Assembly (NCBI GenBank): GCA_963723105.1 | Contig: CAVRPK010000004.1 | Location: 4,765 to 68,764 of the forward strand | Source: an uncultured Candidatus Micrarchaeota archaeon | GTDB taxonomy: Archaea > Micrarchaeota > Micrarchaeia > Anstonellales > Bilamarchaeaceae | DNA: 64,000 bases | Direction of reading: 5' to 3' | Notes under the pieces: model-generated | The model's database searches: none | The model's input: only the letters and a program-made list of their open reading frames with translations | What the model was told of the DNA's origin: nothing | Shown: piece after piece, positions 7,108-46,982 of the stretch | Numbering within the stretch: position 1 is the first letter of the stretch | Layout: the number at the start of each line of letters is the position of its first letter | Made by a program: the position numbers and the translations under genes

Positions 7108-9159
7108 ATGGATTTAATTGTTGCAGAAAAACCTAGGGTAGCGGAAAAGATTGCTAATGCTATAGGTGAATCGGTTAAGAAAAAGTCATACAAAGGAGTC
7201 TATTACTACGAGGCAAAAAGAAACGGGCAAGAGTTTATGGTTGCCCCAGCTGTTGGTCATGTTTATACTCTTGTTGAAAAAGAAAAAACCCGAGGTTACC
7301 CCATTTTTGATATAGAATGGGTGCCTGCTTATGAAGCATCAAAAGAAGCAGCATATACCAAAGGCTATGTAGAGCTTATTCAAAAACTTGGAAAAAGCGC
7401 AGACACTTTCGTCTCAGCTTGCGACTATGATATTGAAGGAAGTACAATTGCATACAATGTATTTCGTTTTGCAACAACTATCCGCGAAGGACAGAGAATG
7501 AAGTTCTCAGCGTTGACTCAGGGAGATCTTGAAGCTGCTTATGATGACCGCGCGGAGTTTGATTATTCTAATGCATATGCTGGTGAAGCAAGGCACATAA
7601 TTGACTGGTATTATGGTATCAATTTAAGCCGGGCTCTTATGGGAGCTCTTCGTGCTGCTCATAGATATAAAGTCATGTCAGTCGGACGTGTTCAGGGACC
7701 TGCACTTTCTCTTTTATCTAATTTAGAATCAAGCATTCGTGCTTTTGTTCCAACTCCTTATTGGGAATTAATTACTAAAATCAAAGATGTAGATTTCAAG
7801 CACAAAAAAGATCGTTTCCTTGATGATGAATCCGCATCAATATCAATGGATAATACCAAGTCTACTGGAAAAGTTTCTAAGGTTGATAAAAAAGAGCAAA
7901 AGATTGCGCCGAACCCTAATTTCGACTTAACTGCTTTGCAGGTTGAAGCATACAAGCTTTTCAAATTCTCTCCATCAAGGACATTGGAACTTTCCCAGCA
8001 TCTTTACGAAGCTTCTCTAATTACTTATCCAAGAACTTCTTCAAATCAAATCCCATCATCGATCAAACTTGGTCCGATTCTGACTGCACTTGAAAAGAAC
8101 AAGGACTATTCAGCATTAATCAAAAAGATCAAAGCAAACAAATGGACAAAACCAATTCAAGGAAAGAAAAAAGATCCAGCACATCCTGCAATTCATCCAA
8201 CTGGCCAAGCTCCCGGTTCCATTGATCCACACCAAAAGAATCTCTATGATCTTATTGTCAAAAGATTTTTGGCATCATTTGCTACTCCTGCAAAGAGAGC
8301 TCGAAACAGAGTTGAAGTTGAAAGCGGCGGCGAGGAATATGCTGCATCTGGAAGCAGAATTGTAGAGCCTGGCTGGACTGAATTTTATGGAAAGTACTAT
8401 ACAACTGAAGATGTTGAGCTTCCTGAATTCAAGGAAGGAGAATCAGTGAAACTTTCCAAAGTGGAAAAAACAAAGAAAGAAACAAAACCACCAAAACGAT
8501 TTACTCAAGCTTCAATCGTTTCCGAACTTGAAAAAAGGCATTTAGGGACCAAGGCAACTCGTTCTGTGGTTGTTGATACGCTTTTCAAAAGAGGATATGC
8601 AGAAGGCAAATCCATTGAAGTGAGTGACTTCGGGCTTAAAGTATCTGATGTTCTTCAGAAATATGCCCCAGAAATCCTTGATGAGAATTTGACAAGATCA
8701 CTTGAAGAAAAAATGGAACTTATTCAAGCCGGCAAACTTGATAAGGAAGAAGTCATTAGTGAGTCTCGGGAGCTTCTGACTGGAATTCTTAATAAGTGGA
8801 AGAAAAACGAAGCAGAAATTGGTGCCAGTCTTCTTGATGCTCTTCAAACTACCCTGGAGCAGGAAAGCTTGGTTGGTCCTTGTGATAAGTGCGATAAGAA
8901 GCTTCGTATAATCAGAATGAAATTCAAAAAACAATTCATTGGTTGCCATGGATATCCAAATTGCAGAAATACCTATCCTCTTCCAACTGGCGCATATGTT
9001 AAGCCAACTGGAAAAGAGTGTACTGCTTGCAGCAAGCCAACTATAAATGTTAAAAAGGGCCGGATTAGATATACTATGTGTATTGATCCGAATTGTCCGT
9101 CAAAAGCAGATTGGCGCAAGAAGAGTGGTAGTCGCAATGAGAAAGATAGCAAATCATGA
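7108..9159 (+). CDS. topA: DNA topoisomerase IA (archaeal TopA/Topo III-like)
   Basis: TOPRIM N-terminus MDLIVAEKPRVAEKIA, acidic cluster ACDYDIEGS, catalytic-Tyr region LITYPRTSS, and C-terminal Cys4 zinc ribbons (CDKCDKK..CHGYPNC and CTAC..CIDPNC). Confidence 0.9.
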   Translation: MDLIVAEKPRVAEKIANAIGESVKKKSYKGVYYYEAKRNGQEFMVAPAVGHVYTLVEKEKTRGYPIFDIEWVPAYEASKEAAYTKGYVELIQKLGKSADTFVSACDYDIEGSTIAYNVFRFATTIREGQRMKFSALTQGDLEAAYDDRAEFDYSNAYAGEARHIIDWYYGINLSRALMGALRAAHRYKVMSVGRVQGPALSLLSNLESSIRAFVPTPYWELITKIKDVDFKHKKDRFLDDESASISMDNTKSTGKVSKVDKKEQKIAPNPNFDLTALQVEAYKLFKFSPSRTLELSQHLYEASLITYPRTSSNQIPSSIKLGPILTALEKNKDYSALIKKIKANKWTKPIQGKKKDPAHPAIHPTGQAPGSIDPHQKNLYDLIVKRFLASFATPAKRARNRVEVESGGEEYAASGSRIVEPGWTEFYGKYYTTEDVELPEFKEGESVKLSKVEKTKKETKPPKRFTQASIVSELEKRHLGTKATRSVVVDTLFKRGYAEGKSIEVSDFGLKVSDVLQKYAPEILDENLTRSLEEKMELIQAGKLDKEEVISESRELLTGILNKWKKNEAEIGASLLDALQTTLEQESLVGPCDKCDKKLRIIRMKFKKQFIGCHGYPNCRNTYPLPTGAYVKPTGKECTACSKPTINVKKGRIRYTMCIDPNCPSKADWRKKSGSRNEKDSKS

Positions 9160-10358
9160 AGTTGAAGGAAAAACTGTCTTAGTACGTGTTGATCTCAATT
9201 GTCCTCTTGAAAATGGCAAAATCACTTCTCATATACGTATTGACGCACATGCAGTTACTCTAAAAAATCTCAGTGATCGTGGTGCGAAAGTAGTCGTTCT
9301 CTCCCACCAGGGTCGAAAAGGAGCTGATGATTTTGTTACTCTTGAGCAGCATTCAAAAATTCTTCAGGATATACTAGGGCGCGAGGTTCTATTTGTACCT
9401 GACATGATTGGTCCTGTTGCTATTGAAGCGATTTCAAAAACTAAAAAACGGCCAAATTCTTGTTCTTGATAATGTGCGTCATCTTCGCTGCGAAACTGCC
9501 CATCCACATGCAAAGGGTGAAATTGTTTATCATCTTTCTCCTCTTGCAGATTATTTTGTTTTGGATGCATTATCTGTTGCTCACAGAGCACACTCAAGCA
9601 TCATAGGTTTCAAGGATAAGATTCCTTGTTTTGCCGGAGATGTTCTTGCAGAAGAGCTTGATGCAGTCGACAAGATCCGCCAGAGCGACGACGTAACATT
9701 TATCTTTGGCGGCTCCAAGGTTAAAGATTCATTTAAAGTAATGGACAAATGGCTTACTGATGGCAGGGCAAAAAAAATTCTCGTTGGTGGGGCGCTTTCA
9801 GTTCTATTGCTTCGTGCAAATGGCAGCAATATAGGCGGCTCAAGTGAATATTTAAAAGAATCAGGACTTGACAAATACCTTCCAGCTGCAATTAAGATGA
9901 TTGAAAAATATGATGGAAAAATTCATCTTCCAACTGACGTTGGACTTTCATTTAAGAAAGAAGAGCATGGCCGTCAGGTTGTTTGGGAGCGGGTAGAATC
10001 AGACGTTTCAAAAATAGAAACCGGTCAAATCTGGGACATTGGTGAAAAGTCCACAAAAGAGTACTCAGATGCAATCTCTTCTTCCAAATGCATTGTGATG
10101 AATGGCCCTGTTGGAGTTTATGAAATTGATAAATTTTCAAAAGGAACAAAAACAATTCTTGATTCAATTGCAAAGACCAGTGTCTTTTCACTTCTTGGAG
10201 GCGGTCATACGCTTGCTGCTCTTGAAAAATTTAATATTGATAAAAACCAGTTTGGTTATGTGAGCTTATCCGGCAAAGCCCTTATTGCATATCTGTGCGG
10301 AGACAATCTTCCAGGCCTTGTTTCACTGGAAGAAAATGAGAAGCTCTTTGATATGTAA
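9137..10358 (+). pseudogene. pgk: Phosphoglycerate kinase interrupted by a +1 frameshift in an A5 run (9436-9440); a true pseudogene or an assembly error
   Basis: Track ORFs 9047..9469 and 9408..10358 together encode one PGK. Frame A reads MRKIANHEVEGKTVLVRVDLNCPL..HQGRKG..IGPVAIEAISK. Frame B continues LKNGQILVLDNVRH..FIFGGSKVKD..GGGHT. Removing one A restores AIEAISKLKNGQILVLDNVR. ATG 9137 overlaps the topA end by 23 nt. Confidence 0.85.
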
Positions 10359-15612: not shown

Positions 15613-16554
15613 ATGAAAGCGCTTATCTTTGCGGAAGGCAATGGTTTTGGCCATGCTTCCCGCGATTCAATTATTTCAGAAAAATTCAATTTTCCTATCA
15701 TGACCTTTGGCAATGGGGCCCAATTCTGCAAAATGAATGATATTGATTTGATAGAAATTCCTGCTCCATACACTATCAAAAAAGTAAAAAACAGAGTCAA
15801 GATAGTAACAAATCCTGGGGAGATACTGAAGCTGGCGAGTCCCAAAACAATCCAATCAATCAAAGAGCATTTCGCAGATTATGATTACATCATCGTAGAT
15901 GGCTCTCCTCTTGGCCTGGCAATTTCTATGGCCATGAAAAAGAAAGCAATATACATCACCAATGATACCTCATCCTTGGTTGGCATCAATGGAAAAGTTT
16001 CAAAAAAAGTTGCAGCTTCTCTATATAATCAAATATTATCCTATCCGGAAAAAATAGTTATTCCTGATTTTTCTCCTCCGCTTACAGTAACTTCAAAAAA
16101 TCTAAATCCAAACCTTCCGATGGTTTTCAGCGGACCACTCGTCAAGAAAAGAAAACAAATCTCTCATAAAAAGAAAATCATAGTTGCAGGAAGGCTTGAA
16201 GAAGAGCTTCGGCCATTTCTTGGAGATGATGCACTATATGGGAATACTGTGGAACATCTAAGTTCTTACTATCGGGACTGCGAAGTTGTAATATGCCATG
16301 GTGGACACACAACAATCATGGAAGCTCTTTCATTTGGAAAACCTGTCATTGTTATTGAAAACTCAAAGCATACTGAGAGATACAACAATGCACTGGTTCT
16401 TGAAGAAAAAAATGTTGGAATTGTTTTAGAAAAATACATTCTCACAAGAGAAAGCCTGCATTCTGCAATTGAATATGCAAAAACCCTGGATCACTCAAGA
16501 CTTTCATTATACAAAAAACAATCAAAACCAAATCTGGATGTTTTTTCTCTTTAG
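15613..16554 (+). CDS. GT-B glycosyltransferase (MurG/GT28-GT1-like, archaeal MJ1255-type)
   Basis: N-terminal EGNGFGHASRD and C-terminal ICHGGHTTIMEALSFGKPVIVI nucleotide-sugar binding motifs. Confidence 0.7.
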   Translation: MKALIFAEGNGFGHASRDSIISEKFNFPIMTFGNGAQFCKMNDIDLIEIPAPYTIKKVKNRVKIVTNPGEILKLASPKTIQSIKEHFADYDYIIVDGSPLGLAISMAMKKKAIYITNDTSSLVGINGKVSKKVAASLYNQILSYPEKIVIPDFSPPLTVTSKNLNPNLPMVFSGPLVKKRKQISHKKKIIVAGRLEEELRPFLGDDALYGNTVEHLSSYYRDCEVVICHGGHTTIMEALSFGKPVIVIENSKHTERYNNALVLEEKNVGIVLEKYILTRESLHSAIEYAKTLDHSRLSLYKKQSKPNLDVFSL

Positions 16555-16787: not shown

Positions 16788-17648
16788 TTAATCCTCTTCT
16801 TCTTCGGATTCGTCGTCCTCAGATTCGTCTTCATCTTCAGATTCGTTTTCGGATTCATCTTCATCCTCAGAGTCATCTTTGGATTTTCCTGTTTTATCCT
16901 TTGTTTTTTCTTCTGTTTTTGTCTTATTCTGGCTCTTAGTCACATTCCCTTTTCCATTTTCTGATTCAGTTTCGTTTTCATCAAACTCATCCTCATCAGT
17001 TTCTGTCTCATTGCCCTTGTTCATTTTTTTCTGCTCTTTATATTCCTCTTTTTCCTGAACTTTTTCCTCATGCCTCTCCTGGTTCATTATGGAGTTGTTT
17101 AGAGCACGTAGCACTCCGTCCTTTGCTGATTCAGGTACTTTTTCATAAACTCTCTGCAGTACGGTTATGCTGTTTCTAAGCTGGGTTTCAACTTCCTCAA
17201 TATCTTCTTCATCTGCACTGCCTTCTTCAATAGCTCCCTCAAGCTCTTGCTGGGCATCTTCCATCTCATCATTCTGCTCCTCAGTAAGATTTTCTACTGC
17301 AGCAAGGGTTTCATTGGCCTCAGATTCTTTTCCTTCTGCTAAGAGCTGCTGGTATTTTTTAGTCATAACATGCGCTTCAACTGCACGAAGCTTTCCATAT
17401 TTTGCATGCTTTTTTGCTTTCTCAGCTTTGTCGAGTGTGAAAAACTTATCCACATTTTCAAAGAACCTCTGGAATCCATAACCCAGATCTCCAGGAAGTG
17501 CTCCTACTTCCTCCTCAACAAATGATAATTCTTCTTGAACTACAGTTTCATTACTAACTACTGTAACATTGCTTTCATTTGTTTCAGTTACCGCAAAAAC
17601 TGGAACTGCCAGAACTGCCAAAACAAGTACAAACATCATAATCTTCAT
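16788..17648 (-). CDS. Secreted acidic helical protein with poly-Asp/Glu/Ser tail
   Basis: Start moved to MKIMMFVLVLAVLAVPVFA (signal peptide). The body is helical and Glu-rich, ending in SEDEDESENESEDEDESEDDESEEEED. It resembles the DUF5667-type secreted proteins I remember from CPR/DPANN genomes, but I am not certain of that. Confidence 0.6.
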   Translation of the reverse strand: MKIMMFVLVLAVLAVPVFAVTETNESNVTVVSNETVVQEELSFVEEEVGALPGDLGYGFQRFFENVDKFFTLDKAEKAKKHAKYGKLRAVEAHVMTKKYQQLLAEGKESEANETLAAVENLTEEQNDEMEDAQQELEGAIEEGSADEEDIEEVETQLRNSITVLQRVYEKVPESAKDGVLRALNNSIMNQERHEEKVQEKEEYKEQKKMNKGNETETDEDEFDENETESENGKGNVTKSQNKTKTEEKTKDKTGKSKDDSEDEDESENESEDEDESEDDESEEEED

Positions 17649-17742
17649 ACATATCATCTCCATCCCAACTGGGACGAACAAATAAAAGCGTGAACAGAAT
17701 ATAATCTGTTCAGGGAACAAGCGTGAACTTTGGAGAATCTGG

Positions 17743-18576
17743 ATGAACAAAGCATTTTTTTTGCTTTTAGTACTTGCGTCTTCTGCCTATTCATCAGATT
17801 TAATCACACTTGATGTTGAACGCTCTGGTTTAACTTCAGTCATACTTTCGCTTGAAGGTGGTGGATCATCATCAGTATTCATCCCGCAAGATTCGTCAAA
17901 TTTCCGGATTGTGGGAGGATCTTACAAGATTGTAAATAATACAGCAACCATATCAGCAGGTCCATCTGGATTCACAACTTTTTCATATTCCTCATCTGAA
18001 CTTACGACGAAAACATCAAGCAGCTGGAAGCTTTTCTTTACTGCACCTGAGAATTCAATTGTATCTGTTTACATGCCAGCACACGCTGAAATTTTATCCT
18101 CCTCTCCAAAACCAGTAAAGGTTTCTGCAGATGATTCCAGAGCCTCGCTCGAATTTCAAGGTGGACAGATCAGTCTTGAATATGAACTTAAGAATCCTCC
18201 AGAGCCAGAGCAATCCGACTCAGGACTCATTCTTCCCTCAGTAATTATTCTTGCAATGTCAATAGTTATTGCAGCCTATCTGCTGCGGACTAAAAGTCAC
18301 GAACGACAAGTATCAGAAAAAAAACCTTCACTTGGATTGACTTCTGGAAAAAAGGAGATGATGGAAACATTTAATGAAAATGACAAGATCATCGTAGACT
18401 ATCTTCTTTCCTGCGAGGGCAAATCAAAAAGAAATGATCTTGAGAAGAAGACTGCAATCAGTAAATCAAGTCTGGCCAAAGCGATAAACCGGCTTGAAAA
18501 AAGAAAAATAATCGAGATAGACAGAACTTCTACTACTCATTTTGTGAAGCTCTCAGAGTATTTCCTAAAACTTTAA
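17743..18576 (+). CDS. Membrane-anchored winged-helix regulator (signal peptide, beta-rich ectodomain, TM, cytoplasmic wHTH; COG2512-like)
   Basis: Signal FFLLLVLASSAYS and TM ILPSVIILAMSIVIAAYLL. C-terminal FNENDKIIVDYLLSCEGKSKRNDLEKKTAISKSSLAKAINRLEKRKIIEI is a MarR/wHTH-like motif. Paralog of 56220..57101. Confidence 0.65.
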   Translation: MNKAFFLLLVLASSAYSSDLITLDVERSGLTSVILSLEGGGSSSVFIPQDSSNFRIVGGSYKIVNNTATISAGPSGFTTFSYSSSELTTKTSSSWKLFFTAPENSIVSVYMPAHAEILSSSPKPVKVSADDSRASLEFQGGQISLEYELKNPPEPEQSDSGLILPSVIILAMSIVIAAYLLRTKSHERQVSEKKPSLGLTSGKKEMMETFNENDKIIVDYLLSCEGKSKRNDLEKKTAISKSSLAKAINRLEKRKIIEIDRTSTTHFVKLSEYFLKL

Positions 18577-19248: not shown

Positions 19249-19755
19249 ATGCGAAATTTTCTGTTTGGTTTTTCATCTGGCCTCATAATCTTTTTCTTAA
19301 TCTCTACATTCTTTCTTCAACCTGAAATCAATCCTGTTTTTTCTCCTGAAGATGGATCTGAAATCATTAACCTAATCAAAAATGCAGAAGAATCTATTGA
19401 AATTGAAATGTATGTTTTTACTTCAAGAGATGTTGTTGATGAGCTGGAAAAAGCAAAAAACCGCGGAGTCAAAATTCGACTAATAATAGAACGAAGCACA
19501 ATCAGCGGAAGCAACAAACAAATTTTTGAAGAACTCCAGGCAAAGGGATTCAACGTCAGATATGCAAGCAAAACCTACAAGCTTACTCATTCCAAATTCA
19601 TGATTATTGACAATAAATCTGTCTTGGTAGGCTCTCACAATTTCAGCAATTCTGCTCTTTTCAAAAACCGGGAAGCATCAGTAATTATCTCTGAATCAAG
19701 TACAGTATCTGAATTCCTTTCTGTTTTCGAACTTGACTGGGCAATTGCATCATGA
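19249..19755 (+). CDS. Phospholipase D-family single-HKD nuclease (Nuc-like), membrane-anchored or secreted
   Basis: N-terminal hydrophobic segment GLIIFFLISTFFL. HKD motif HSKFMIIDNKSVLVGSHNFS. Its 168-aa size matches homodimeric Nuc-type endonucleases. Confidence 0.75.
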   Translation: MRNFLFGFSSGLIIFFLISTFFLQPEINPVFSPEDGSEIINLIKNAEESIEIEMYVFTSRDVVDELEKAKNRGVKIRLIIERSTISGSNKQIFEELQAKGFNVRYASKTYKLTHSKFMIIDNKSVLVGSHNFSNSALFKNREASVIISESSTVSEFLSVFELDWAIAS

Positions 19756-19796: not shown

Positions 19797-20639
19797 ATGG
19801 CAAAAAGACTAATGCTTGGAAAAAATGAAAAGGTAGATATCAAAGAGCATTTAACGAAAAAAAAGCAGAAATATCAGCTTTTAGATGCAGACAAAATGCT
19901 TTCTATGGATACGAAAAAACTACCAATCAATGAAGCATGCGAACAGCTGCTTTCTAATTTATTCGGTAGCACTTCTTCTCCTGAAATAATAGATGCTGTT
20001 GCCGATTTCCTGAAAGAATCAACCTCTATGGATGATCTTGATATCCGAACCAAGCTAGTTCCCCAACTCCTTGCTTTATACTATCGCAGCATGCCAAAAA
20101 TGCGAACAACTCATAAAAAACCAAATCTTTCTTCGGCATTCATGGGTCTCTCTTCTGAAATGAGAAAGATGTCCATACAAGAATTAGGGAAATATAAGGT
20201 TGGAATTGTTTTTAGGAATTATGAAGAAGAAACCGGAAGAACTCATGATGTGAGGGTTTCACATTATGATTATGATCCAACTGGAAACGCACAGCCAACT
20301 CCTAATTTTGAAGGAATTCCAAATATGCGGACTGTATCAACATATGATTTTACTCTAAAGAGATTATGGACCGCAGATAGAATACTGAAAGCGTCTGCTA
20401 CAATCATTGCAGCGGCTGGAATTGCCTGGTATCTTGCTTCAGCATTTGGGTATCCGCCTCCGCACAGATTACTTGTTCCATCGCAGAGAACTGAACTTAT
20501 GCAAAATTATGAAGATGATTCCTGCAGAAGAATCGGCCCATTCCACAACCTTGGCGATTCCCTGCTATCAACAGAGATCAGCCTCAAGCGTGCAAAGATT
20601 CTTTGTGCTGAAGAATTATACAGAAAAAACAATCCCTAG
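19797..20639 (+). CDS. Hypothetical protein with one C-proximal TM (280 aa)
   Basis: ORF with TM ASATIIAAAGIAWYLASAFGY. No motif recognised. Confidence 0.5.
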   Translation: MAKRLMLGKNEKVDIKEHLTKKKQKYQLLDADKMLSMDTKKLPINEACEQLLSNLFGSTSSPEIIDAVADFLKESTSMDDLDIRTKLVPQLLALYYRSMPKMRTTHKKPNLSSAFMGLSSEMRKMSIQELGKYKVGIVFRNYEEETGRTHDVRVSHYDYDPTGNAQPTPNFEGIPNMRTVSTYDFTLKRLWTADRILKASATIIAAAGIAWYLASAFGYPPPHRLLVPSQRTELMQNYEDDSCRRIGPFHNLGDSLLSTEISLKRAKILCAEELYRKNNP

Positions 20640-21646
20640 CTTCTCTGGATGACATATCTTCCATAAAGCTTTGCAAATATCCTGTATTTGCCCCGGTCAA
20701 GCTTTACAATCTGCCCGCGATCCAGCAATCTTTTGATTAGTGCTGTTATTGGGCCAAGAGGCTTTCCAAGCTCTACTGCAATCTCAGATACATGCATGCT
20801 TTCATTTTTTGCAAGAACCAGCAGTATTTCTTTTTCAGCACCAGGAGTTTCCTGATACATTTTTCCAAACCATTCACGGGAGAGCATACTCATAATATAT
20901 GGAAGATAAGCAAGGTAATGTCCTTTTGAAATAACTTTTTCATTGTCCCGAAGCCTTGCATATATGTGGTGGCAGACTGTTTTGAAAAGAAGTGGATTTC
21001 CCTGTGTATCATTCATTATTGAGTTGAAGCATTCTTCTCCCATCTTTGGCGATTCCTTTCCAAGAGCTTTTTCAACAACTTCATGCCCCTCGTGCTCTTC
21101 AAATGCACCAATCTTCATTTTTTTGACTACTGAAGAGCTGAATTTGAATTCCCTGGTCGAGCTTAGTACAAAACCAGCTGTTTTTTCTCCCCAGACTTCC
21201 TTCAGTTCTTTTTCTATCTCTGAAATAGCATCATTTGACTTCTTCATTTTATCAATATCATCGATGAAAAACACAGTTCCAAAGTGTTTTCCGCCCATTT
21301 CAATGACTTCAATAAGCTCTTTCACTGTTTTTGGAGCTGTTTTGCCTATCTTGGCCCCTGGAATCACTCTCATTTCATTATATAACTTGTCTATAGTTAC
21401 TCCCAAGCTCTCTCCTTTCTCTACTTTGGTATATGGCGCTAGGATGCCGCTTTTCTCTGCCAAATAGCCAAAATGGCGAAGAAGTGTTGTTTTTCCAGTG
21501 CCAGGTACTCCAAATACTAAAATCCCTCCTCCTTGCTTTGAGGTTGCTTCATTTGCGAAACTGTTAAATATGCGAACTTCGTCTTTCCTACCAGCTATTT
21601 CTTTGGGGTTTTCGTCCCAAAGTACGAACGGATTTGGGCCTTTCAT
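20636..21646 (-). CDS. AAA+ 'archaeal ATPase' (Arch_ATPase/ORC-like) with C-terminal winged helix
   Basis: Walker A GVPGTGKTTLL and Walker B TVFFIDDIDK. The C-terminal ESMHVSEIAVELGKPLGPITALIKRLLDRGQIVKLDRGKYRI is wHTH-like. Confidence 0.7.
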   Translation of the reverse strand: MKGPNPFVLWDENPKEIAGRKDEVRIFNSFANEATSKQGGGILVFGVPGTGKTTLLRHFGYLAEKSGILAPYTKVEKGESLGVTIDKLYNEMRVIPGAKIGKTAPKTVKELIEVIEMGGKHFGTVFFIDDIDKMKKSNDAISEIEKELKEVWGEKTAGFVLSSTREFKFSSSVVKKMKIGAFEEHEGHEVVEKALGKESPKMGEECFNSIMNDTQGNPLLFKTVCHHIYARLRDNEKVISKGHYLAYLPYIMSMLSREWFGKMYQETPGAEKEILLVLAKNESMHVSEIAVELGKPLGPITALIKRLLDRGQIVKLDRGKYRIFAKLYGRYVIQRS

Positions 21647-21751: not shown

Positions 21752-21790
21752 CTACAACAATAAACTACAACGTATGTAGTTTTTGTAGTT
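21752..21790. promoter_or_regulatory. Composite dyad element (2x CTACAAC, 2x GTAGTT) upstream of the giant-gene TATA
   Basis: CTACAAC occurs at 21752-58 and 21765-71, and GTAGTT at 21776-81 and 21785-90. Nested inverted repeats are AAACTAC (21762-68)/GTAGTTT (21776-82) and CTACAA (21752-57)/TTGTAG (21783-88). Confidence 0.45.
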
Positions 21791-21813
21791 TCTATAAGTA
21801 CTATGAACATAAA

Positions 21814-21824
21814 CATTTTTAAAG
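21814..21824 (+). promoter_or_regulatory. TATA box (CATTTTTAAAG) for giant gene
   Basis: Lies about 26 nt upstream of ATG 21846. Confidence 0.5.
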
Positions 21825-21845: not shown

Positions 21846-24800
21846 ATGAGCGTTAACAAGTATGTTTTCGGAGCATTGGTGTTCCTATTACTGGTTGGCA
21901 GTGTATCTGCTGGCTTCTTTGGAGCACAAACCGATATGGAGAGTCAAGTAGTCGTAGTTCCAGACGAGACAGGTTTATTGCTGAACATCAGCGTATTGAC
22001 ATTTGAACCTGCAGTTAGTACTGGTGGAACTAATATCAGAGACGTCATGCAACAGATTGTTACTGACTGTCAGGCTGAAGGCGGGGATCTCCAAGCTTGT
22101 ATTAATAGAGAATCTATAGCAAGGACTGCTTCATCTACAGGCTACCAAATGAATCTAACTTCTCTTCAAAACGCTCGTGTTACTGTAGAAATTTACAATC
22201 CAATGACCCAAGGATATACTCAAGTTACTAACTGTGGGGACCTTACTACTAATATTCATGGACTTGCATCTATTCCTGCAGAATCTGGTCAAACTGAAAC
22301 AGTAGACAATTGGTACGCTCAATGTGATCTTTCTGAAGCTGTTGAAGGACAAACCCGCTCTTCATTTAGGGTAATGTATCTCCCAGCAGATTCTACTAAT
22401 ATCAGTATGAGTTTTACACAATACGAATATGACAATGCACAAGTATCTGTTTCAAGTGCATTCACAGCAAGCTTAAACAGTGCAATAAATGGACTTGCTC
22501 AGAGTGAAACACTTCCATGTGTTGGTGTATTCCTTATACTTGGACTTCTATTATCATCATTATACTTTTCAGGCAAGTCACCAATATCACTTCTTGATAT
22601 TACTACTCCAAGGCTACCTGCTCCAAAAGGTGTTACGGCCGGAGGACAAATGCTCATGCCTTTTGGTTATACGGAAATGAAAAGAACAACAAAGGCAAAG
22701 ATGGCAGCAGCTGCCGGTGCACTTGCTGTTTCTGCAGGTGCAATAGCAAATTCAAGAAGAGGAGATTCTGTTCTAAATAGATTAAATGGCAGAGTTGCAG
22801 GACTTAATGGAACTGCAGCAGACAGAGCAGCTGGAGATGTTGCAGAAGGAAGAAGAATCGCAAGTTCTCTCATTACAGCTGGTCGAACTGCCGGAATGAG
22901 CGAGCAGGAACTTGAGAGACTTGCAGCAAGACTACCATATCATTATGGAGACGAAGAGCACAGAACTATTGCTCAACTTCTCGAACGTCTACAAGGTATG
23001 GGCGGCAGAGAAAGATTAATGGCATTAACACTCAAGGACTATATGCTTGGTCTAAGACAATATCAATCTCTTGAAGTTCTTACAGCACATCCAGATATAG
23101 GAAAGAGAAGTGCAGTTCACCAGAGAATGTCCAACGTGCTTACAAAAACTGTTGGTGTTAACAGATATGCAATCATCGGTGGTTTTGTTCCTGGTACGCT
23201 TGACTCTACTGTCAGAACTGGAAGAGTAGTTGGAAGAATGGGTAAAGGAATGGTTACTCATGCTCCAGAGCTTGCAAAAGCAACTGCAAGGACAACAATG
23301 TCTATGCTCGGAGGCAGAAAGATAGCAGAAGAGCGTGGAAGAAGCGGATCTGCTGTTGCTTGGGTAAATCAACAAGCATCAAAGAATCCGGCATCACTTA
23401 TCATTGGACAGGCATTCCCTGTTAGTGACAAGATGGGCCATCTTTACAACCAGCTTAACAAAGAAGCTCACAACGACTCAATGAGATATGTGCTCAAGCA
23501 GCTCTACAAGAAAATGGGAATGAAATTCAATGTGTCTTCAGAAGAGCTTGCAACAATGGGACACATCGATGTTGATATCCTAAAAAGATCTGGATTCAAA
23601 CAAACCGCAGAACTTGCAGCACTTGAGAAAGAAATCGGAAGAGTACTTTCAAACTCTACATTCAACTCACAGCAAAAACTTTCTGCACTTACTAGTCTTG
23701 CAGAATCTCATGGAGCTCACATTGATCACCAGATGCTTCTCTTTGCACAAAAGCTTGAGGCAATCAACACCTCTGGACATGACGATCATGTCAAGCTTAT
23801 CATGCTTCAGGAGGAGATGGAAAGACAGAACAAAGTCAGGCTTGCAACCTATGCAACTGGCCATGTTAATGACGATACATTCGTCAGCCATGTTGGTGGA
23901 GACACACTTCGTGGAAGTCAGGTCTGGGAGACAATGGTTCTTCGTACTATGATCTATGATCATGAGAATGGACAGGTTCATGGTGGCGGAATTAAGGAAG
24001 AGCTTTTATCAGCCAGACTTAATGTTGCAAACAGACTTGGTTCACTTGATCCTTCATCTTCAATGCACGAGCTTCCAGAGCACATGAGAAATGCTGGTCA
24101 GCTCAAAGCAGTAACTGCAAGAAACAAGCACGACCTTATCGAACTTTTCACAGCAGAAGGGCGAGAAGCATTCCAGCGAAATCAAGGTAAAAGTATCACT
24201 ACTGCTTCAATCGGTGACATAGTTGGATTCATGGCTGGTGGTGAACTTAACCGTACTGGTCATGTTGACAAAAAAACTGGACGTATGGTTTGGTGGGGAG
24301 CTGATATGGAACTTGCTTCTCCAGCACACTTTACCAAGGTCGATACAAAGAGACACTGGGTTAAAGATCTTAATCCAGCAGAGAACTTTGCAATTGGTCA
24401 GTGGACTGAATCCAGAATGACTAAGAGCTATGTTCCTCACTTTGATGCAGCACAAGAAGCACAACTTGATAGAATGTCTGGTTCCAGTGGATGGACAAAT
24501 GAGCAGAGAACCAATGAGAAAAAGAAACTCATGGTAGCATCTGAACTTTCCAAAGATATGGAGCAAAGATTCAACTCACAGTTTGGCCACAACACATATG
24601 GAACAACAAGGGAAACTACGAGGTTCTATAATGGTGTACTTTCTGGCTTTATGGAAAAAGCTCTTGAAGAAAAAGGTCTTTCAGCAAATCATCCAGACCT
24701 TAGATTCATTAAAGAGATGGATACCACAAACCCAGATCATCTTGCAAAGCTTAGAGATCTTATGGTTACACACAAGAAAGAGTATGAAGCTGTTCTTAGT

Positions 24801-26555
24801 AGACCTGTTAGCTATGATGATATTGCAAAATCAAACAAAGCAATGGTCATGCTTCATGAAGGTGGTTTTGCATATTACTCTAAGGGTATGATGCTCAGTG
24901 ATGCAGACCGTGTCATGGCTGGAGAAGTTTCACTTCGAGATGACAAGGGCCAGCTTCGTAAATTCGTTCCAGAAGATGTTCCAGTCAACTTTGCTGGCCG
25001 TGATGACCTTATGAGACAATATCAAAAGGTCGGAGGATCTAAGGATCCAAATGAATGGAAATCATTCATAGGCGAAGCAACTAAATGGGCAAAGGAAGGT
25101 GGATACAGCTACGACAAGGAGAAGGTGCTTGCAGCAGTTCTCTGGAGTCAAGCCGGTGCAACTTATAACTACTCCGACTACTGGAAGCACAGTGCAGTTA
25201 CTGTTGCTCCAAAGAGAGAAGTTACTCCAATTGCACCATCTCCAATGAGATTCTTCGGAGCAGAAGGACATACATTCACTACTATGATGAAGCCATTTAG
25301 AGACATTGGACTTCATGGTGGGGACTACATTTCCAAAGTTGCACTTGCAGCAGGTGGTTCTCTACAGAAAGCATCCTATGATATTACTCCAACTTCAGAG
25401 TACTATAGGCAACACTCATGGCAACTTTCCAGCAAGATCATGTCTGGTCAGGATATGAAAGGTCTATCTGAAGCAGAGAAAGTAGCATACAGGAATGTTG
25501 CAACTCAGCACTACGCATATCACCAGGTGTGGGACTATGCAATCGACAGAAACCCATGGAGAACATCAACTTCATTTGGTACTCACCAATCATGGGCTTC
25601 ATTCTTCCACTTTGGTCCAGCATCAAACTTTGATGTTCGTGATAACCTTCGAGGATACATGGGCAAGGGTGAATATGCAAACTTCATGTCACTCTATGGT
25701 TTCCCAATGAATGCTGCTGCAAAGCTGATGAAACCTTATGCAGGTATGGTCAGAGGTATGCAGATGTCTATGCAAGGTTATGCATCCAAATGGGATCAAA
25801 CGCCTGATGCACTTAAGCAATGGAACTTCACTGAACCAAGACTTCGAGAAGCTATGCAGTCAATTAATCCATTTTCTGCTAAATGGTTCTCAGGTAAAAC
25901 TTCGGAGAGGGTTGCCAAGCTTAATGTCTTTGGTGGAAGTCTTGAGCAGCACCAGCTTGCAGGTAATGACTACATGGGTGGTCTTAAGCAGGCTCCTCAG
26001 GATATATTCCTACAGAGAAAGGGTGTTTATGCATCTGCTAGAACTGGTGAAACAAATCCAGGAGCTAGCTTCATGGACTATAGGGCAAACCTACACGTTG
26101 ATGCTCCAATGGCAGAGTACCTGATCAGAAACAACGAAGCAGCCTACAAATATGATAAACAGATTCAGTCTGAGGCTATGAACAACACCACAAGGAGAAC
26201 AGTTTCTGCTGAGGCACTTTCTCTTAGAAGAGATCAGGAGCTTCGTGGATTCGGCGCAATGCAGAACCCACTTTATGGTTGGGCTAACCCACTTGCATTC
26301 CTATGGCATGCACCGGTACCACTGTTCCCACAGTCACTTACTCCAAAGGATATCATTGGAAATGCAGTGAAGAAACACAAGCATGGCCATGGTGGATCTT
26401 GGGAGCAATCTGTTGCTAATGCAGGAACAGGAGTTGCTCGTGGAACAAAGAGGCTTCTACAACCCCATCTCATTGCAAGACAGGTCTACTGTCCTAAGTG
26501 TGGCCGTGGTGGTCTTAGAGGTGCAACCTGTCAGTGCGGACAGACCCTCTATTAG
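21846..26555 (+). CDS. Giant orphan membrane-tethered protein (1569 aa) with C-terminal zinc ribbon
   Basis: One uninterrupted 4.7-kb ORF. Signal/anchor FGALVFLLLVGSVSAG, a ~200-aa ectodomain, and TM LPCVGVFLILGLLLSSLYF. An A/G/R-rich linker leads into ~1250 aa rich in M/H/W/Y/G, ending in CPKCGRGGLRGATCQCG. No catalytic motif recognised. Confidence 0.8.
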   Translation: MSVNKYVFGALVFLLLVGSVSAGFFGAQTDMESQVVVVPDETGLLLNISVLTFEPAVSTGGTNIRDVMQQIVTDCQAEGGDLQACINRESIARTASSTGYQMNLTSLQNARVTVEIYNPMTQGYTQVTNCGDLTTNIHGLASIPAESGQTETVDNWYAQCDLSEAVEGQTRSSFRVMYLPADSTNISMSFTQYEYDNAQVSVSSAFTASLNSAINGLAQSETLPCVGVFLILGLLLSSLYFSGKSPISLLDITTPRLPAPKGVTAGGQMLMPFGYTEMKRTTKAKMAAAAGALAVSAGAIANSRRGDSVLNRLNGRVAGLNGTAADRAAGDVAEGRRIASSLITAGRTAGMSEQELERLAARLPYHYGDEEHRTIAQLLERLQGMGGRERLMALTLKDYMLGLRQYQSLEVLTAHPDIGKRSAVHQRMSNVLTKTVGVNRYAIIGGFVPGTLDSTVRTGRVVGRMGKGMVTHAPELAKATARTTMSMLGGRKIAEERGRSGSAVAWVNQQASKNPASLIIGQAFPVSDKMGHLYNQLNKEAHNDSMRYVLKQLYKKMGMKFNVSSEELATMGHIDVDILKRSGFKQTAELAALEKEIGRVLSNSTFNSQQKLSALTSLAESHGAHIDHQMLLFAQKLEAINTSGHDDHVKLIMLQEEMERQNKVRLATYATGHVNDDTFVSHVGGDTLRGSQVWETMVLRTMIYDHENGQVHGGGIKEELLSARLNVANRLGSLDPSSSMHELPEHMRNAGQLKAVTARNKHDLIELFTAEGREAFQRNQGKSITTASIGDIVGFMAGGELNRTGHVDKKTGRMVWWGADMELASPAHFTKVDTKRHWVKDLNPAENFAIGQWTESRMTKSYVPHFDAAQEAQLDRMSGSSGWTNEQRTNEKKKLMVASELSKDMEQRFNSQFGHNTYGTTRETTRFYNGVLSGFMEKALEEKGLSANHPDLRFIKEMDTTNPDHLAKLRDLMVTHKKEYEAVLSRPVSYDDIAKSNKAMVMLHEGGFAYYSKGMMLSDADRVMAGEVSLRDDKGQLRKFVPEDVPVNFAGRDDLMRQYQKVGGSKDPNEWKSFIGEATKWAKEGGYSYDKEKVLAAVLWSQAGATYNYSDYWKHSAVTVAPKREVTPIAPSPMRFFGAEGHTFTTMMKPFRDIGLHGGDYISKVALAAGGSLQKASYDITPTSEYYRQHSWQLSSKIMSGQDMKGLSEAEKVAYRNVATQHYAYHQVWDYAIDRNPWRTSTSFGTHQSWASFFHFGPASNFDVRDNLRGYMGKGEYANFMSLYGFPMNAAAKLMKPYAGMVRGMQMSMQGYASKWDQTPDALKQWNFTEPRLREAMQSINPFSAKWFSGKTSERVAKLNVFGGSLEQHQLAGNDYMGGLKQAPQDIFLQRKGVYASARTGETNPGASFMDYRANLHVDAPMAEYLIRNNEAAYKYDKQIQSEAMNNTTRRTVSAEALSLRRDQELRGFGAMQNPLYGWANPLAFLWHAPVPLFPQSLTPKDIIGNAVKKHKHGHGGSWEQSVANAGTGVARGTKRLLQPHLIARQVYCPKCGRGGLRGATCQCGQTLY

Positions 26556-26592: not shown

Positions 26593-29202
26593 ATGAGAAT
26601 CATCCTTTTGTTTGCTTTAGGCCTAGTGCTTATTTCCGGATGTTTGCAATCTGTTGGTGGAGATAGTTATACAACTGATTATGCAAATGATTTGGCACGT
26701 GTTGCTATAACTGATCCTGATCAGGTTGCACAGTGTGAATTTGGAAAATGCTGGTGCATGGTCTGTGAAAACGGAACTAATATTTTTGGAAGCTCTATTA
26801 CAAGTTTGATCGGTGGATACTGCTATCTTGAGCAAGACTGCAATGAAACTGTTTCACATTCACTTTATTCTACAAATGAAACTCCAAGTCTTTCAATTCG
26901 TGGTTTTATGATAGGCCAAGGTCCTACAATTGCTGATTTTGCAGATGCAACTCCATATTGTTCCTATCGACTTAACATGGCTGTTCAGTTTTTGAGCGCA
27001 ACAGAAGAGTCTCCATATCTTCTTCCAGATGCAGGGCGGTCAATGTGCCTTCTTAGCAAGGATGTTATGCCTGTCTATGTTCTCTACAGCGGTGGAGAAA
27101 ATATCAACAATACAAGAGCCCGGATGGTTGGTGAAGTGCTTGGAACAGAAGGTGATGATCTGTTTCTAGGAAGGCTTTCTGATGGTCCTGTTGGTCCTGT
27201 TGTTGTAGTTACTGAAATAGATTTCAATCGCAGTGATGTTAGCCAAATTGCAGATCAGGTTCGTGCAGTAAATGACGGCTGTCGAAATGTACGATCTGGT
27301 GATGATGCTCGGGTCAATTGCTGGGTTGCAGTTTCTCCAAAGTTCAATGACTTTGATTCTCTAAATGCAGTAATGGCACAGGTTGGAGATCAGGTTGATC
27401 TTATTTCCTTTGGAGTAAATGGGAAATATGTTGATGCATGTACTAATAACAGAATTAATACTGGAAAGATGATGAATCAAATTCGAAACTATACAACTTA
27501 TGCACTTTATAATCTCAGTAAACCAACAATTATTCCATATGTTTTATTTGATCCTGGAACTTCTGATGTTGGTGGATGCAACTGGACTGAGGCTGATGTA
27601 GTTTCAGCATATGCTGCATTCTGGCCAAATGGAATTCAATCTTTGCAGCAAAAAGGACTGATCGGAATTGCTCCTTATTCATTTAATTCAAGTGATTATG
27701 GATACATTGCAAATCCACTTGGATGCAATGCCTGTTCTGTTGGTTCGAGCGATGCAAGAATGCGCGCATGGTATGGCTGGTGTCAAAGTTATACAAATGT
27801 TTCAGGAAGAAACTCCCCACATCCAGGTGGTGGAACTCCAATAATTTTCCCAAATGCTTCTGGTGGTTATTGTGATTTCAATGCCCAGGCAGACTATTTG
27901 CTTCGGGAAGTGAGCTTTATGGATTCAGGTTCAAACAGGGATCTTATGAATCCTCAAACTCCAGATGTTAGGCCAGCTGGCGATCCGCTCTTTCGCTGCA
28001 GTGCATGCGTTAATTATAATTTGAGTCTTGATGCACTATCTCACTTTTCATTTGATCCAAACGAGGGAGCACCTCCAGAGCGATACTGCACTGCATTTCC
28101 GCAAATTGAGCATTGGGCAGATGCTAGAAATTTAGACCCTATGTTTGTTCGGGCAGTTATACTTACTGAAAGTGGTTTTGATCCATGTGCTGCTGCAAGA
28201 GTTTGCCGTGGCGGTTATGATGATGGCCAATGTTTCCAACCTGGTCCTGGGGTAGATGAGTGTTATGCAAAACCTGCATATAATGAAATGTGGGATCCTG
28301 ATGTTACCTGCAATGTAAACCTTACTCCAGCAGCAAACTCCAATTCAGATAATCCTGATTGGCGTTGGTGTGCCTTTGGTTTGATGCAGGTTATCAAACC
28401 TCCCTATACATACTGGCCTGCATCTGCTCATCCAGACGGTGTAGATGGAACATACCTTGATATTTATGAGCAAACTGGTTTCTATCCGCAAGAGCTTGAT
28501 TCAGTTAAGGCATGCGCAAATCCAAGCGGCGAATACAATCCATTTAATCCAAGCCATTCCATTTGCGCAGGTACTCTTGGAATTGCAAGTCAGCTTCGTT
28601 CTGCCAGAGGGATAGTGGATTCATCTCATAGTGCCGGACTACTTAATTGGGATGCTGGTGATGTTGAGAAAAATGAACTATTTGCATACTATATCGTCGG
28701 TCACCTGTATACTGGTTTCTGGGGCGCTGCAAATAGACATAATGTTGGTAGTATTCCAGCTCCATGTGGTATTGGGACAATTGGAAATGGGGATTGTCTT
28801 CTCCAGGAATTCCATAAGGCATGGACAGTTACTGATGAATACTGTGAATCTGATGATGGGCAAGCCGATACAATAGCCTGCAGTGGTGATCATCCAAGAG
28901 TGGATCCTCCAGAAGCATGTTATGGATATACTGATATCCTTCTATTTTATCAAGATTGTATACAGCCGTTCTTGCAAAGAGAGGCTGATCCTGGAAAAGA
29001 AAAAATGGAAGCATATTTGTGGCTTCGTGGATGCCCGAATAATATGTGTCCGGATGGTCAGGCTTTAATCAATGCAATCTGCACACCTGATGCAACTGGC
29101 CAGGTTGATCCAAGTCTTTGCATTGGTCCAAATCAACCTTTAGTAACTGGAAATCCATACATAATAGATGAGGAAGCTGAGGAAGAAACTCCAGAAGAAT
29201 GA
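26593..29202 (+). CDS. Secreted Cys-rich lipoprotein with SLT/GH23 lytic transglycosylase-like domain (869 aa)
   Basis: Lipobox signal LVLISGC. About 40 Cys in total. SLT core RAVILTESGFDPCAAA (catalytic Glu codon at 28168-28170) and FGLMQV (28375-28392) are separated by a ~70-aa Cys-rich insertion. Confidence 0.7.
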   Translation: MRIILLFALGLVLISGCLQSVGGDSYTTDYANDLARVAITDPDQVAQCEFGKCWCMVCENGTNIFGSSITSLIGGYCYLEQDCNETVSHSLYSTNETPSLSIRGFMIGQGPTIADFADATPYCSYRLNMAVQFLSATEESPYLLPDAGRSMCLLSKDVMPVYVLYSGGENINNTRARMVGEVLGTEGDDLFLGRLSDGPVGPVVVVTEIDFNRSDVSQIADQVRAVNDGCRNVRSGDDARVNCWVAVSPKFNDFDSLNAVMAQVGDQVDLISFGVNGKYVDACTNNRINTGKMMNQIRNYTTYALYNLSKPTIIPYVLFDPGTSDVGGCNWTEADVVSAYAAFWPNGIQSLQQKGLIGIAPYSFNSSDYGYIANPLGCNACSVGSSDARMRAWYGWCQSYTNVSGRNSPHPGGGTPIIFPNASGGYCDFNAQADYLLREVSFMDSGSNRDLMNPQTPDVRPAGDPLFRCSACVNYNLSLDALSHFSFDPNEGAPPERYCTAFPQIEHWADARNLDPMFVRAVILTESGFDPCAAARVCRGGYDDGQCFQPGPGVDECYAKPAYNEMWDPDVTCNVNLTPAANSNSDNPDWRWCAFGLMQVIKPPYTYWPASAHPDGVDGTYLDIYEQTGFYPQELDSVKACANPSGEYNPFNPSHSICAGTLGIASQLRSARGIVDSSHSAGLLNWDAGDVEKNELFAYYIVGHLYTGFWGAANRHNVGSIPAPCGIGTIGNGDCLLQEFHKAWTVTDEYCESDDGQADTIACSGDHPRVDPPEACYGYTDILLFYQDCIQPFLQREADPGKEKMEAYLWLRGCPNNMCPDGQALINAICTPDATGQVDPSLCIGPNQPLVTGNPYIIDEEAEEETPEE

Positions 29203-46858: not shown

Positions 46859-46982
46859 CGCCTCGGGGAGGATTCGAACTTCCGGCCTGCTGATGTCTGT
46901 AACTGAATAATCAGTTTTGATCCAACTTTTTCCAAAAGTTGGAATAACAGTCAGCCGCTCTAACCAGCTGAGCTACCGAGGC
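46859..46982 (-). tRNA. tRNA-Asn(GUU) with 50-nt canonical (37/38) intron
   Basis: The minus strand reads GCCTCGG-TA-GCTC-AGCTGGTTA-GAGC-G-GCTGA-CTGTTA. The intron follows at 46895-46944. The 3' exon is A-TCAGC-AGGCC-GGAAG-TTCGAAT-CCTCC-CCGAGGC-G. There is one A:C mismatch in the T stem. Confidence 0.8.

Follow-up and report, generated by a model that had tools for sequence, protein, structure and literature searches.

The locus described here raises the question of what a protein of 1,569 amino acids (aa), with a small domain outside the cell and most of its mass inside, could do in the envelope of an archaeon. The protein, hereafter the giant, is encoded in a stretch of 64,000 nucleotides (nt) of contig CAVRPK010000004.1, from an uncultured Candidatus Micrarchaeota archaeon; we call this whole stretch the window, and all positions refer to it. 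Micrarchaeota are ultra-small and host-dependent, and the molecular side of their envelope, division, and host contact is almost uncharted; furthermore, protein families that are restricted to one lineage and have no assigned function are common in DPANN genomes. An earlier sequence-only reading of the window had taken the giant for an orphan that, together with the lipoprotein gene downstream and the ATPase gene upstream, could form an envelope-spanning apparatus. We found that the giant is a type-I single-pass membrane protein with its mass opposite a small Cys-bearing N-terminal domain, that its family is vertically inherited across Micrarchaeota, and that its pairing with the lipoprotein outlasts a change of its cytoplasmic body.

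The giant gene

The giant is encoded on the plus strand by the longest open reading frame (ORF) of the window, which opens with the ATG at 21846 and closes with the stop at 26555. As the sequence-only reading had it, the gene has its own TATA-like box (cattttTAAAG, 21814..21824, plus strand), 22–32 nt 5′ of the ATG. Sixteen other loci conserve the box in the form aCATTTaTAAAG; CCCGAA comes next, ~12 nt 5′ of the ATG. The giant mRNA would have little or no leader.

The composition of the protein, which had been described as unusually rich in Met, His, Trp, Tyr, and Gly, does stand apart: it has more M, H, W, G, A, R, and Q, and less I, K, and E, than 47 other ORFs. The G+C content at third codon positions (GC3) is 0.319, against 0.305 ± 0.034 in the same 47 ORFs. 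This GC3 matches the genome, and the gene is a native chromosomal one. An assembly chimera, one of the cases that could have undone the earlier reading, is ruled out by the collinear full-length homologs found in more than 40 independent assemblies.

Membrane topology and domains

The giant begins with a predicted signal peptide (aa 1–22, …LLLVGSVSA; 21846..21911), and a like h-region is present in 44/46 homologs; this and the following domains are all encoded on the plus strand. The ectodomain (aa 26–222; 21921..22511), modelled as a beta-sandwich with two inserted helices, is acidic (isoelectric point, pI, 4.05), lacks Lys, and carries four conserved Cys: two are invariant (C130 and C160), and the other two (C75 and C85) occur in at least 90% of the members. 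Then comes a transmembrane (TM) helix (aa 223–241; 22512–22568) that, with the juxtamembrane motif GKSPISLLDITTPRLPxPKGVTAGGQ, forms the best-conserved stretch of the giant (22512..22682), with a column conservation of 0.84 versus ~0.4–0.7 elsewhere. A total of 53 ORFs contain the module made of the TM helix and LLDITTPRLP; among them are Micrarchaeum-type giants, the bodies of which are unrelated to that of the window giant.

Hydropathy across 46 homologs gave only two hydrophobic segments, the signal peptide and the one TM helix. The residues K244, R256, and K261 come after this helix, and the 1,326 aa that follow it have a pI of 9.44; about 85% of the giant is cytoplasmic and basic, with 4.5% Met. 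Past C225, the window giant has Cys only at the four zinc-ribbon positions. Indeed, charge, Cys content, and pI contrast sharply between the two sides of the membrane segment. We place the mass of the giant in the cytoplasm because of the positive-inside charges and the zinc ribbon. The signal, the Cys-bearing ectodomain of ~200 aa, the single TM helix, and the ~1,300 cytoplasmic residues after it had all been read from the one sequence, and they were borne out over the family.

The cytoplasmic body (aa 280–1490; 22683..26315) is mostly alpha-helical in the model. No internal repeats were detected in it, and a repeat or solenoid reading was rejected on this basis. The low-complexity Ala/Gly/Arg stretch reported after the TM helix exists (aa 281–350), and AlphaFold2 models it as confident helices rather than as a disordered segment. 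A basic linker (aa 1491–1544, KKHKHGHGG...GTKRLL; 26316..26477) of low conservation, with a predicted local distance difference test (pLDDT) score of 45–58, connects the body to the C-terminus.

At the C-terminus lies CPKCG-x8-CQCG (26478..26552). The earlier reading had recognized a zinc ribbon here, correctly, but had given the spacing as x9; the motif reads x8, with nine residues between the second and the third Cys. Three of the Cys are invariant (C1549, C1552, and C1564), and the fourth, C1562, occurs in at least 90% of the members. The Pfam family zf-tcix matched 8 of 18 giant members (best E 4.8e-4), similarity to bL32 is weak, and the AlphaFold2 model shows short strands at pLDDT 80–88. 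By conserved Cys, profile matches, and model, the terminus is a predicted C4 zinc ribbon, or treble-clef finger.

Two other assignments were considered and rejected. A Walker-A regular expression has a single match in the giant (AKWFSGKT, aa 1345), so the earlier statement that no P-loop motif is present needs amending to that extent; its substance stands, as position 1 of the match is A in only 7/46 members, gaps are present, and in the AlphaFold2 model the segment is preceded by a helix and not by a strand. We read the match as chance. The giant is also no archaeal surface-layer (S-layer) protein of the PF05123 type: there is no match to PF05123, and, where such a protein would be mainly extracellular, acidic, and low in sulfur amino acids, the basic, Met-containing bulk of the giant is cytoplasmic. 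The published S-layer protein of Ca. Micrarchaeum harzensis is a different protein, of 101 kDa.

Predicted structure

The giant was modelled with AlphaFold2 in two tiles, aa 400–1569 (with 45 sequences as input) and aa 1–450. The first gave a mean pLDDT of 83.2 and a predicted template modelling (pTM) score of 0.84, and it is mainly alpha-helical and non-repetitive, with few small beta elements. In the second, the ectodomain forms a beta-sandwich, the TM helix follows, and helices are predicted with confidence from aa 272 on. Confidence is low for residues 248–271 if the segment is modelled by itself.

For the aa 400–1569 model, Foldseek returned nothing at E <= 1e-3 from PDB and BFVD; template modelling scores (TM-scores) were at most 0.09 against PDB and comparably low against BFVD. 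Among viral proteins, the top matches were to tape-measure or internal-virion proteins, at E of at least 0.01 and a TM-score of ~0.07, which we judged to be noise from long helices. The aa 1–450 model had no match at E <= 1e-3 in PDB either, and its ectodomain gave only weak, generic Ig-like matches. Judging from the models, the body is confidently folded and is without known relatives in the databases searched. The earlier statement that the protein fits no characterized family thus holds at the level of structure, for large tiles against PDB and BFVD.

A family confined to Micrarchaeota

The homolog search covered 5.8 billion proteins, and the locus scan covered one genome per GTDB species. 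We obtained 75 clusters of giant homologs, near-full-length and collinear, 27–89% identical, and nearly all 1,565–1,630 aa long; wherever the source name gives a taxon, this is Micrarchaeota, Micrarchaeia, or one of their genera. In species-representative genomes, 57 giant loci were found: the titles of 53 name Micrarchaeota, Micrarchaeia, or a member genus or family, and four say only "archaeon". The match in JAHJDH010000032.1 has 97% protein identity to the window giant. The word "orphan" is therefore not tenable in view of the 75 homologs and 57 loci.

To look for relatives outside the phylum, 1.84 billion cluster representatives were searched, without filters, with a profile of aa 400–1569. 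Only the giant family came back: 124 proteins at E <= 1e-3, all members or fragments of it, and the named ones are from Micrarchaeota. Searches with the single sequence, with family profiles, and with 18 members one by one found nothing besides the C-terminal zinc finger in Pfam, PHROGs, NCBIfam, PADLOC, and PDB sequences, in keeping with the earlier remark that no described family could be assigned. The five most divergent full-length giants are free of Pfam matches except for one weak, sub-threshold zinc-ribbon match. In the literature we found no published description of the giant family or of the operator described below. Among the assignments tried for the giant, only the zinc ribbon holds; P-loop, S-layer, and PADLOC defense protein do not.

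The divergence of the locus follows that of TopoVI (r = 0.79). The locus keeps the same chromosomal position across the phylum, with the giant present once per fetched locus, and the wider context is one of housekeeping genes (TopoVI A/B, TFB, topoisomerase I, PGK, and CorA). The giant family is vertically inherited across Micrarchaeota. No phage or plasmid similarity of the locus was found and, with native GC3 and a fixed chromosomal position, an origin from a phage or another mobile element was rejected.

The lipoprotein partner

The next gene starts 37 nt after the giant (26593..29202, plus strand) and encodes a secreted lipoprotein of 869 aa, with 38 Cys and a lipobox (LISGC). Its family comprises 70 proteins, and all source names that bear a taxon are Micrarchaeota; about three dozen Cys are invariant among five distant members. 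Its N-terminal domain (aa ~20–500) is conserved, Cys-rich, and without profile match. As a side observation, this domain (26593–28100) contains strand-like motifs (MPVYVLYS, VGPVVVVTEIDFN with E208 invariant, CWVAVSPKFND, KPTIIPYVLFD, and LIGIAPYSFN) that end in acidic or polar residues and recall a beta/alpha-barrel hydrolase, without a supporting profile match.

Family 1 lytic transglycosylases have a catalytic Glu-Ser, a GLMQ motif, and an AYNxG-like motif. The C-terminal part of the lipoprotein contains an SLT-like region (LDPMFVRAVILTESGF ... FGLMQ ... AYYIVGHLYTG; 28105..28722, plus strand). In it, E526 (in TESGF), G596, and Q599 (both in FGLMQ) are conserved in at least 90% of the members, and AYYIVGHLYTG matches the third motif only loosely. 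The window copy reaches 19.8 bits against SLT (PF01464; E 5.9e-4), below the cut-off of 21.3 and over profile positions 3–35 only. Across the family, SLT matched 21 of 41 members at E <= 1 (best 2.3e-5) and was the sole recurrent Pfam family; a precomputed PF01464 assignment exists for 1/70 members. When the family profile was compared with PDB, EtgA (4xp8) came second-best, on the catalytic stretch (E 0.5, not significant alone). The motifs and the family-level matches make a divergent SLT, or lysozyme-like, domain probable at aa ~505–710. The description of the downstream gene as a secreted murein-lytic lipoprotein is thus upheld for the lipobox and, at the family level, for SLT; from the window copy taken alone, the case is weak.

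With respect to the known SLT transglycosylases (PF01464; EtgA 4xp8, VirB1), the lipoprotein shares the LDP..RA....ES stretch and GLMQ; it differs in that the SLT-like region is C-terminal in an 869-aa archaeal lipoprotein, with 38 Cys, a 500-aa N-terminal domain, and no associated secretion system. About 5 kb upstream of the cluster, a protein with a glycosyltransferase family 28 C-terminal domain is encoded (MurG/Alg13-like, E 8e-19; 15613–16554, plus strand), and a link between it and the glycan of the SLT-like protein may or may not exist.

Linkage was assessed by tblastn of the window proteins against all fetched loci, counting the loci with a long-range homolog and enough flank. A downstream lipoprotein of 830–960 aa stands beside the giant in 40/41 loci, and the divergent ATPase gene is present in 43/43 tier-1 loci. 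Both neighbors had been pointed out in the window, where they are indeed present, and their consistent linkage across relatives, which had been proposed as a test, is borne out. Precomputed annotations of four distant loci agree with the conserved neighborhood.

We also compared the rates and patterns of divergence in 24 genomes, with the TopoVI-based species divergence regressed out. The strongest correlation was that between ectodomain and lipoprotein distances (r = 0.77, Mantel p ~5e-4), followed by body and lipoprotein (0.55), body and ATPase (0.41), and lipoprotein and ATPase (0.10, not significant). The p-distance is 0.73 for the ectodomain and 0.51 for the body. The co-evolution of ectodomain and lipoprotein could reflect an extracellular contact between them.

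Relatives with another body

A second type of locus, the Micrarchaeum type (L060:5458-11973, L055:5524-12213, L054, L056, L062:3009-9266 with L062:9269-11230, and L063), encodes giants of 2,085–2,240 aa with a K/E-rich, coiled-coil-like body and a hydrophobic C-terminus, without zinc ribbon. They share with the window giant only the signal peptide, the ectodomain, the TM helix, and the LLDITTPRLP module. Hhalign aligned only 43 columns, those of the TM helix and the motif (probability 96), and found no homology between the window body and the C-terminal region of the Micrarchaeum-type giants. Used as a query, the N-terminal module of a Micrarchaeum-type giant returned one partial protein only.

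Two nt downstream of the Micrarchaeum-type giant is a gene for a 653-aa lipobox protein, which is homologous to the first ~530 aa of the window lipoprotein (hhalign probability 99.7, E 1e-25, 461 columns). The pairing outlasts the change of body, and the evolutionarily stable unit is therefore the N-terminal module of the giant with the N-terminal domain of the lipoprotein. These loci have no divergent AAA+ ATPase gene; upstream are an S49 peptidase, a CDP-archaeol synthase, and a small kinase-like ATPase.

Tier-2 relatives (L051, L052, and L057, and also L050 and L053) are 24–29% identical to the window giant and 1,624–1,761 aa long where the ORF is intact. The C-terminal zinc ribbon is present in L050–L053, and the lipoprotein downstream is kept in all but L053. 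In L051, L052, and L057, the large chain of carbamoyl-phosphate synthase is encoded upstream instead of the ATPase, and the operator is absent; in L053, an Arch_ATPase gene is convergent and downstream.

The upstream ATPase and a conserved operator

Divergent to the giant lies the gene of an AAA+ ATPase (AAA_16/Arch_ATPase-like) with a C-terminal winged helix-turn-helix (wHTH) (20636..21646, minus strand). Pfam matches are AAA_16 (PF13191) at 36.8 bits versus a cut-off of 32.6 and HTH_24 (PF13412) at 28.5 versus 21.9, and both Walker A (GVPGTGKTT) and Walker B (FFIDDID) motifs are present. By these profiles and motifs, the protein is assigned to the AAA_16/Arch_ATPase group with a wHTH.

The divergent intergenic region between the two genes is 199 nt long in the window and contains a predicted operator, AAACTACA-acgta-TGTAGTTT-t-TGTAGTTT (21762..21791, no strand assigned), which consists of an inverted repeat and a third, direct copy. 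It lies ~25 nt upstream of the TATA box of the giant, its general form is AAACTACA-N5-TGTAGTTT-T-TGTAGTTT, and it occurs once in the whole window. Allowing at most 2 mismatches, the operator was found once per locus in 40/61 fetched loci, always between the ATPase and giant genes and roughly 50–200 nt upstream of the giant start; it is kept even in a relative with 27% giant protein identity.

Orc1/Cdc6 and Arch_ATPase (PF01637) type proteins resemble this arrangement, which likewise has a P-loop AAA+ module with a wHTH adjoining inverted and direct octamer repeats. In contrast to Orc1/Cdc6 systems, the repeats here stand in a divergent promoter near the TATA box and not around an AT-rich unwinding element. 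An Orc1/Cdc6 replication initiator was rejected on the score of TIGR02928 (26.3 bits versus a trusted cut-off of 181.3). No global GC-skew turn centered at the repeats was seen in the window, and a replication origin beside an Orc-like ATPase is, on these two grounds, unlikely. The wHTH and the deeply conserved operator between the two genes are reasons why we read the ATPase as more likely a regulator than a motor; they suggest that it could act on transcription of the giant locus, rather than as a mechanical partner of the giant.

Other genes of the neighborhood

A small membrane-anchored phospholipase D (PLD)/HKD protein, Nuc or DrmC-like, is encoded at 19249..19755 (plus strand; PLDc_2 at 105.8 bits, HxK..D motif). 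A PLD gene lies at most 4 kb upstream of the giant in 31/43 loci, which is frequent but not universal, and by its profile and motif the protein is classed among the ordinary HKD nuclease-like proteins. A 280-aa ORF without family match (19797–20639, plus strand) separates the PLD gene from the ATPase gene. Apart from a weak trace in L046, its only counterpart is in the nearest relative, L005 (93%), and it seems to be an insertion into the conserved cluster that is specific to this lineage.

Further upstream, a DUF5667 protein (16788–17750, minus strand) and a 277-aa protein (17743–18576, plus strand) form a divergent, slightly overlapping pair. The 277-aa protein has a C-terminal wHTH, with weak matches to TFIIE-alpha, MarR, and CARF-associated HTH. 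Both genes are upstream of the cluster in 16 fetched loci (tblastn).

Two more features of the window are recorded here. PGK is split over overlapping ORFs in different frames (9047–9469 and 9408–10358, plus strand); the 316-aa ORF covers profile positions 97–378 only, the relative in L001 is 410 aa long, and a frameshift is suggested, due to a sequencing error or to a pseudogene. Rfam places a tRNA at 46859–46982 (minus strand; 124 nt, 55 bits), presumably with an intron, in the same window where ARAGORN reported no tRNA.

What the locus may do

We tentatively propose that the giant is a transmembrane coupler for the extracellular, glycan-cleaving lipoprotein, which would be placed or controlled according to a cytoplasmic cue, with the wHTH ATPase as regulator; we would give this account somewhat less than an even chance. 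The ectodomain and TM helix would dock the N-terminal domain of the lipoprotein at the outer face of the membrane. On the other side, the juxtamembrane motif, the basic alpha-helical body of ~1,200 aa, and the zinc ribbon on its flexible basic tether of ~50 aa would bind cytoplasmic partners. The coupler could in this way position or control the enzyme in response to a cue from the cytoplasm, e.g., at a site of division, budding, or host contact. In the lineage of the window, the divergent ATPase would control transcription through the operator.

The closest parallel is bacterial FtsEX (with EnvC, PcsB, CwlO, or RipC), where a secreted wall hydrolase is held by the extracellular domain of a membrane protein and is under the control of cytoplasmic components. 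The likeness is one of logic only, with adjacent genes, and is an analogy and not a homology: the giant is single-pass with a 147-kDa cytoplasmic domain, whereas FtsEX has an ABC ATPase and the four-TM FtsX, and no sequence or structural similarity of the giant to FtsEX was found in Pfam or by Foldseek against PDB.

Several points weigh against the coupler. The SLT score of the window copy is below the Pfam cut-off, and the EtgA match in PDB is not significant by itself. The 653-aa lipoprotein of the Micrarchaeum-type loci has AFNDYG in place of the catalytic TESGF; the catalytic Glu is missing, as is the greater part of the SLT-like region, and the pair therefore cannot have glycan cleavage as its role in all lineages. 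A murein-like wall is not known from Micrarchaeota. A lone TM helix transmits conformational signals poorly unless the protein oligomerizes. The co-evolution signal comes from 24 related genomes and is soft evidence of contact, and the interaction of the pair, its localization, and the enzyme activity are all proposals drawn from sequence. Finally, Foldseek covered large tiles against PDB and BFVD, and a fold match at the level of single domains could be missed.

Signals could also run the other way. The giant may be an outside-in receptor, in which the ectodomain and the lipoprotein sense contact with a host or with a surface glycan and signal to the body, possibly through proteolytic release at the conserved TM or juxtamembrane region; the tethered zinc ribbon would then act on DNA, the transcription machinery, or the cytoskeleton. 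The giant is built like a type-I receptor. Its TM and juxtamembrane stretch, unstructured when modelled alone, is conserved to an extreme degree and looks like a linear site of recognition or cleavage; the portion on the cytoplasmic side is basic (pI 9.44) and has its zinc ribbon at the end of a flexible linker; and conditional expression is suggested by the dedicated regulator and operator. However, no kinase, cyclase, HTH, or other signaling domain is detectable in the 1,300 cytoplasmic residues, the body is far bigger than any known transducer, and the ectodomain is small and fast-evolving (p-distance 0.73). Moreover, no protease gene is consistently linked among the annotated neighbors of the four distant loci. 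We consider a receptor unlikely, with a chance still large enough to be kept in mind.

Less likely is a membrane-tethered housekeeping scaffold, e.g., a divisome or Z-ring anchor or a chromosome-membrane tether, with FtsZ or another core protein as the presumed ligand of the ribbon and the lipoprotein as an accessory partner in the envelope. A single copy per fetched locus, the fixed place among housekeeping genes, and vertical inheritance favor such a role, as does a body that is more conserved than the ectodomain (p-distance 0.51 vs 0.73). A lead, and not a test, comes from CdpC of Haloferax volcanii, a membrane anchor whose C-terminal C4 zinc ribbon binds FtsZ1 and of which distant multi-zinc-ribbon relatives were reported in Micrarchaeota (bioRxiv 10.64898/2026.07.16.738847). 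Both proteins are attached to the membrane and end in a C4 (CPxCG-type) ribbon on a flexible linker; unlike the giant, CdpC has 346 aa, is peripheral via an amphipathic helix, carries two ribbons, and has no counterpart of the 1,200-aa body. Our searches, none of which was aimed at such homology, turned up no relation to CdpC, EzrA, SepF, or division proteins. Furthermore, the Micrarchaeum-type body is wholly different and has no zinc ribbon, which makes a universal core function of the body unlikely, and the family is limited to one phylum, whereas FtsZ is universal.

The apparatus first proposed for this locus would breach the host wall and transfer DNA or protein, powered by the AAA+ ATPase. 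Its ingredients are there, in that the giant, an SLT-like lipoprotein, and an ATPase are linked, and a secreted PLD nuclease-like gene is near in 31/43 loci; lytic transglycosylases do go with type III and type IV secretion systems, as in the case of EtgA. Among other DPANN archaea, Woesearchaeota and Pacearchaeota have large extracellular SLT proteins (fam00969, up to 3,000 aa), for which a role on host walls and in cell-cell interaction has been proposed (Castelle et al., 10.1101/2021.01.12.426361). These are likewise DPANN-specific, very large, and associated with a murein-type transglycosylase domain, but they are single extracellular proteins, whereas here the SLT-like region is on a separate lipoprotein of 870 aa and the giant is nearly all cytoplasmic; the profile search of 1.84 billion representatives found no fam00969-type relatives of the giant. 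The SLT catalytic region was lost in the Micrarchaeum lineage, whose cultured relatives grow with Thermoplasmatales hosts, which have no S-layer. This loss, in a single lineage, keeps a host-directed role of SLT alive.

As for the transfer itself, no VirB4-, VirD4-, FtsK-, or HerA-type ATPase or other secretion or translocation ATPase, no pilin, and no polytopic channel was found among the annotated neighbors in the window and four distant loci, and a type IV secretion or conjugation-like system was rejected on this ground. The ATPase carries a wHTH, adjoins a conserved operator, and is missing from the Micrarchaeum-type and tier-2 loci that retain the pair, and regulation is a likelier role for it than that of a motor. 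A protein with one TM helix makes a poor conduit, plasmid and phage similarity is absent, and high conservation in a fixed position is unlike typical host-interaction genes. We consider the transfer apparatus improbable. What survives of the sequence-only reading as a whole is the topology, the lack of a described family, and the linkage to the SLT-like and ATPase genes; the orphan status, the motor role of the ATPase, and the transfer function do not.

A defense island, a mobile-element remnant, or an artefact (i.e., a PLD nuclease, a STAND-like ATPase, and a giant effector, or else a chimeric ORF) is largely refuted and hardly credible, since, against the fit of the optional PLD gene to DrmC-type models (E 9.5e-23) and the weak BrxC and Csa3-type PADLOC matches of the ATPase, there stand the lack of any PADLOC match for the giant and lipoprotein, a location fixed across the phylum with a divergence that tracks TopoVI, the native GC3, the absence of phage or plasmid matches, and the collinearity of more than 40 assemblies.

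The fixed locus among housekeeping genes and the vertical inheritance fit a part in core cell biology at least as well as one in host attack. A bolder version of the coupler, speculative and unlikely although not negligible, would see in the pair a trans-envelope machine at the site where these ultra-small symbionts touch their host or bud. The ectodomain-TM-LLDITTPRLP module would link interchangeable giant bodies (one of 1,200 aa, alpha-helical with a zinc ribbon, the other a coiled coil of 1,700 aa) to a surface enzyme, and SLT would be kept where a glycan barrier must be opened and lost in Micrarchaeum.

Implications

We rate the giant-lipoprotein module as lying outside the known kinds of system, bearing in mind that the lack of a known function does not prove a new mechanism. 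The locus offers a phylum-wide membrane-spanning candidate, with a predicted folded cytoplasmic domain of 147 kDa, a probable lysozyme-like partner, a conserved TM motif, and a putative regulator with its operator. The existing co-cultures of Micrarchaeum carry a sister version of the pair. If the module acts in host contact or in division, this would be a way, peculiar to one lineage, of solving a basic problem of cell biology, and it would add a new large fold.

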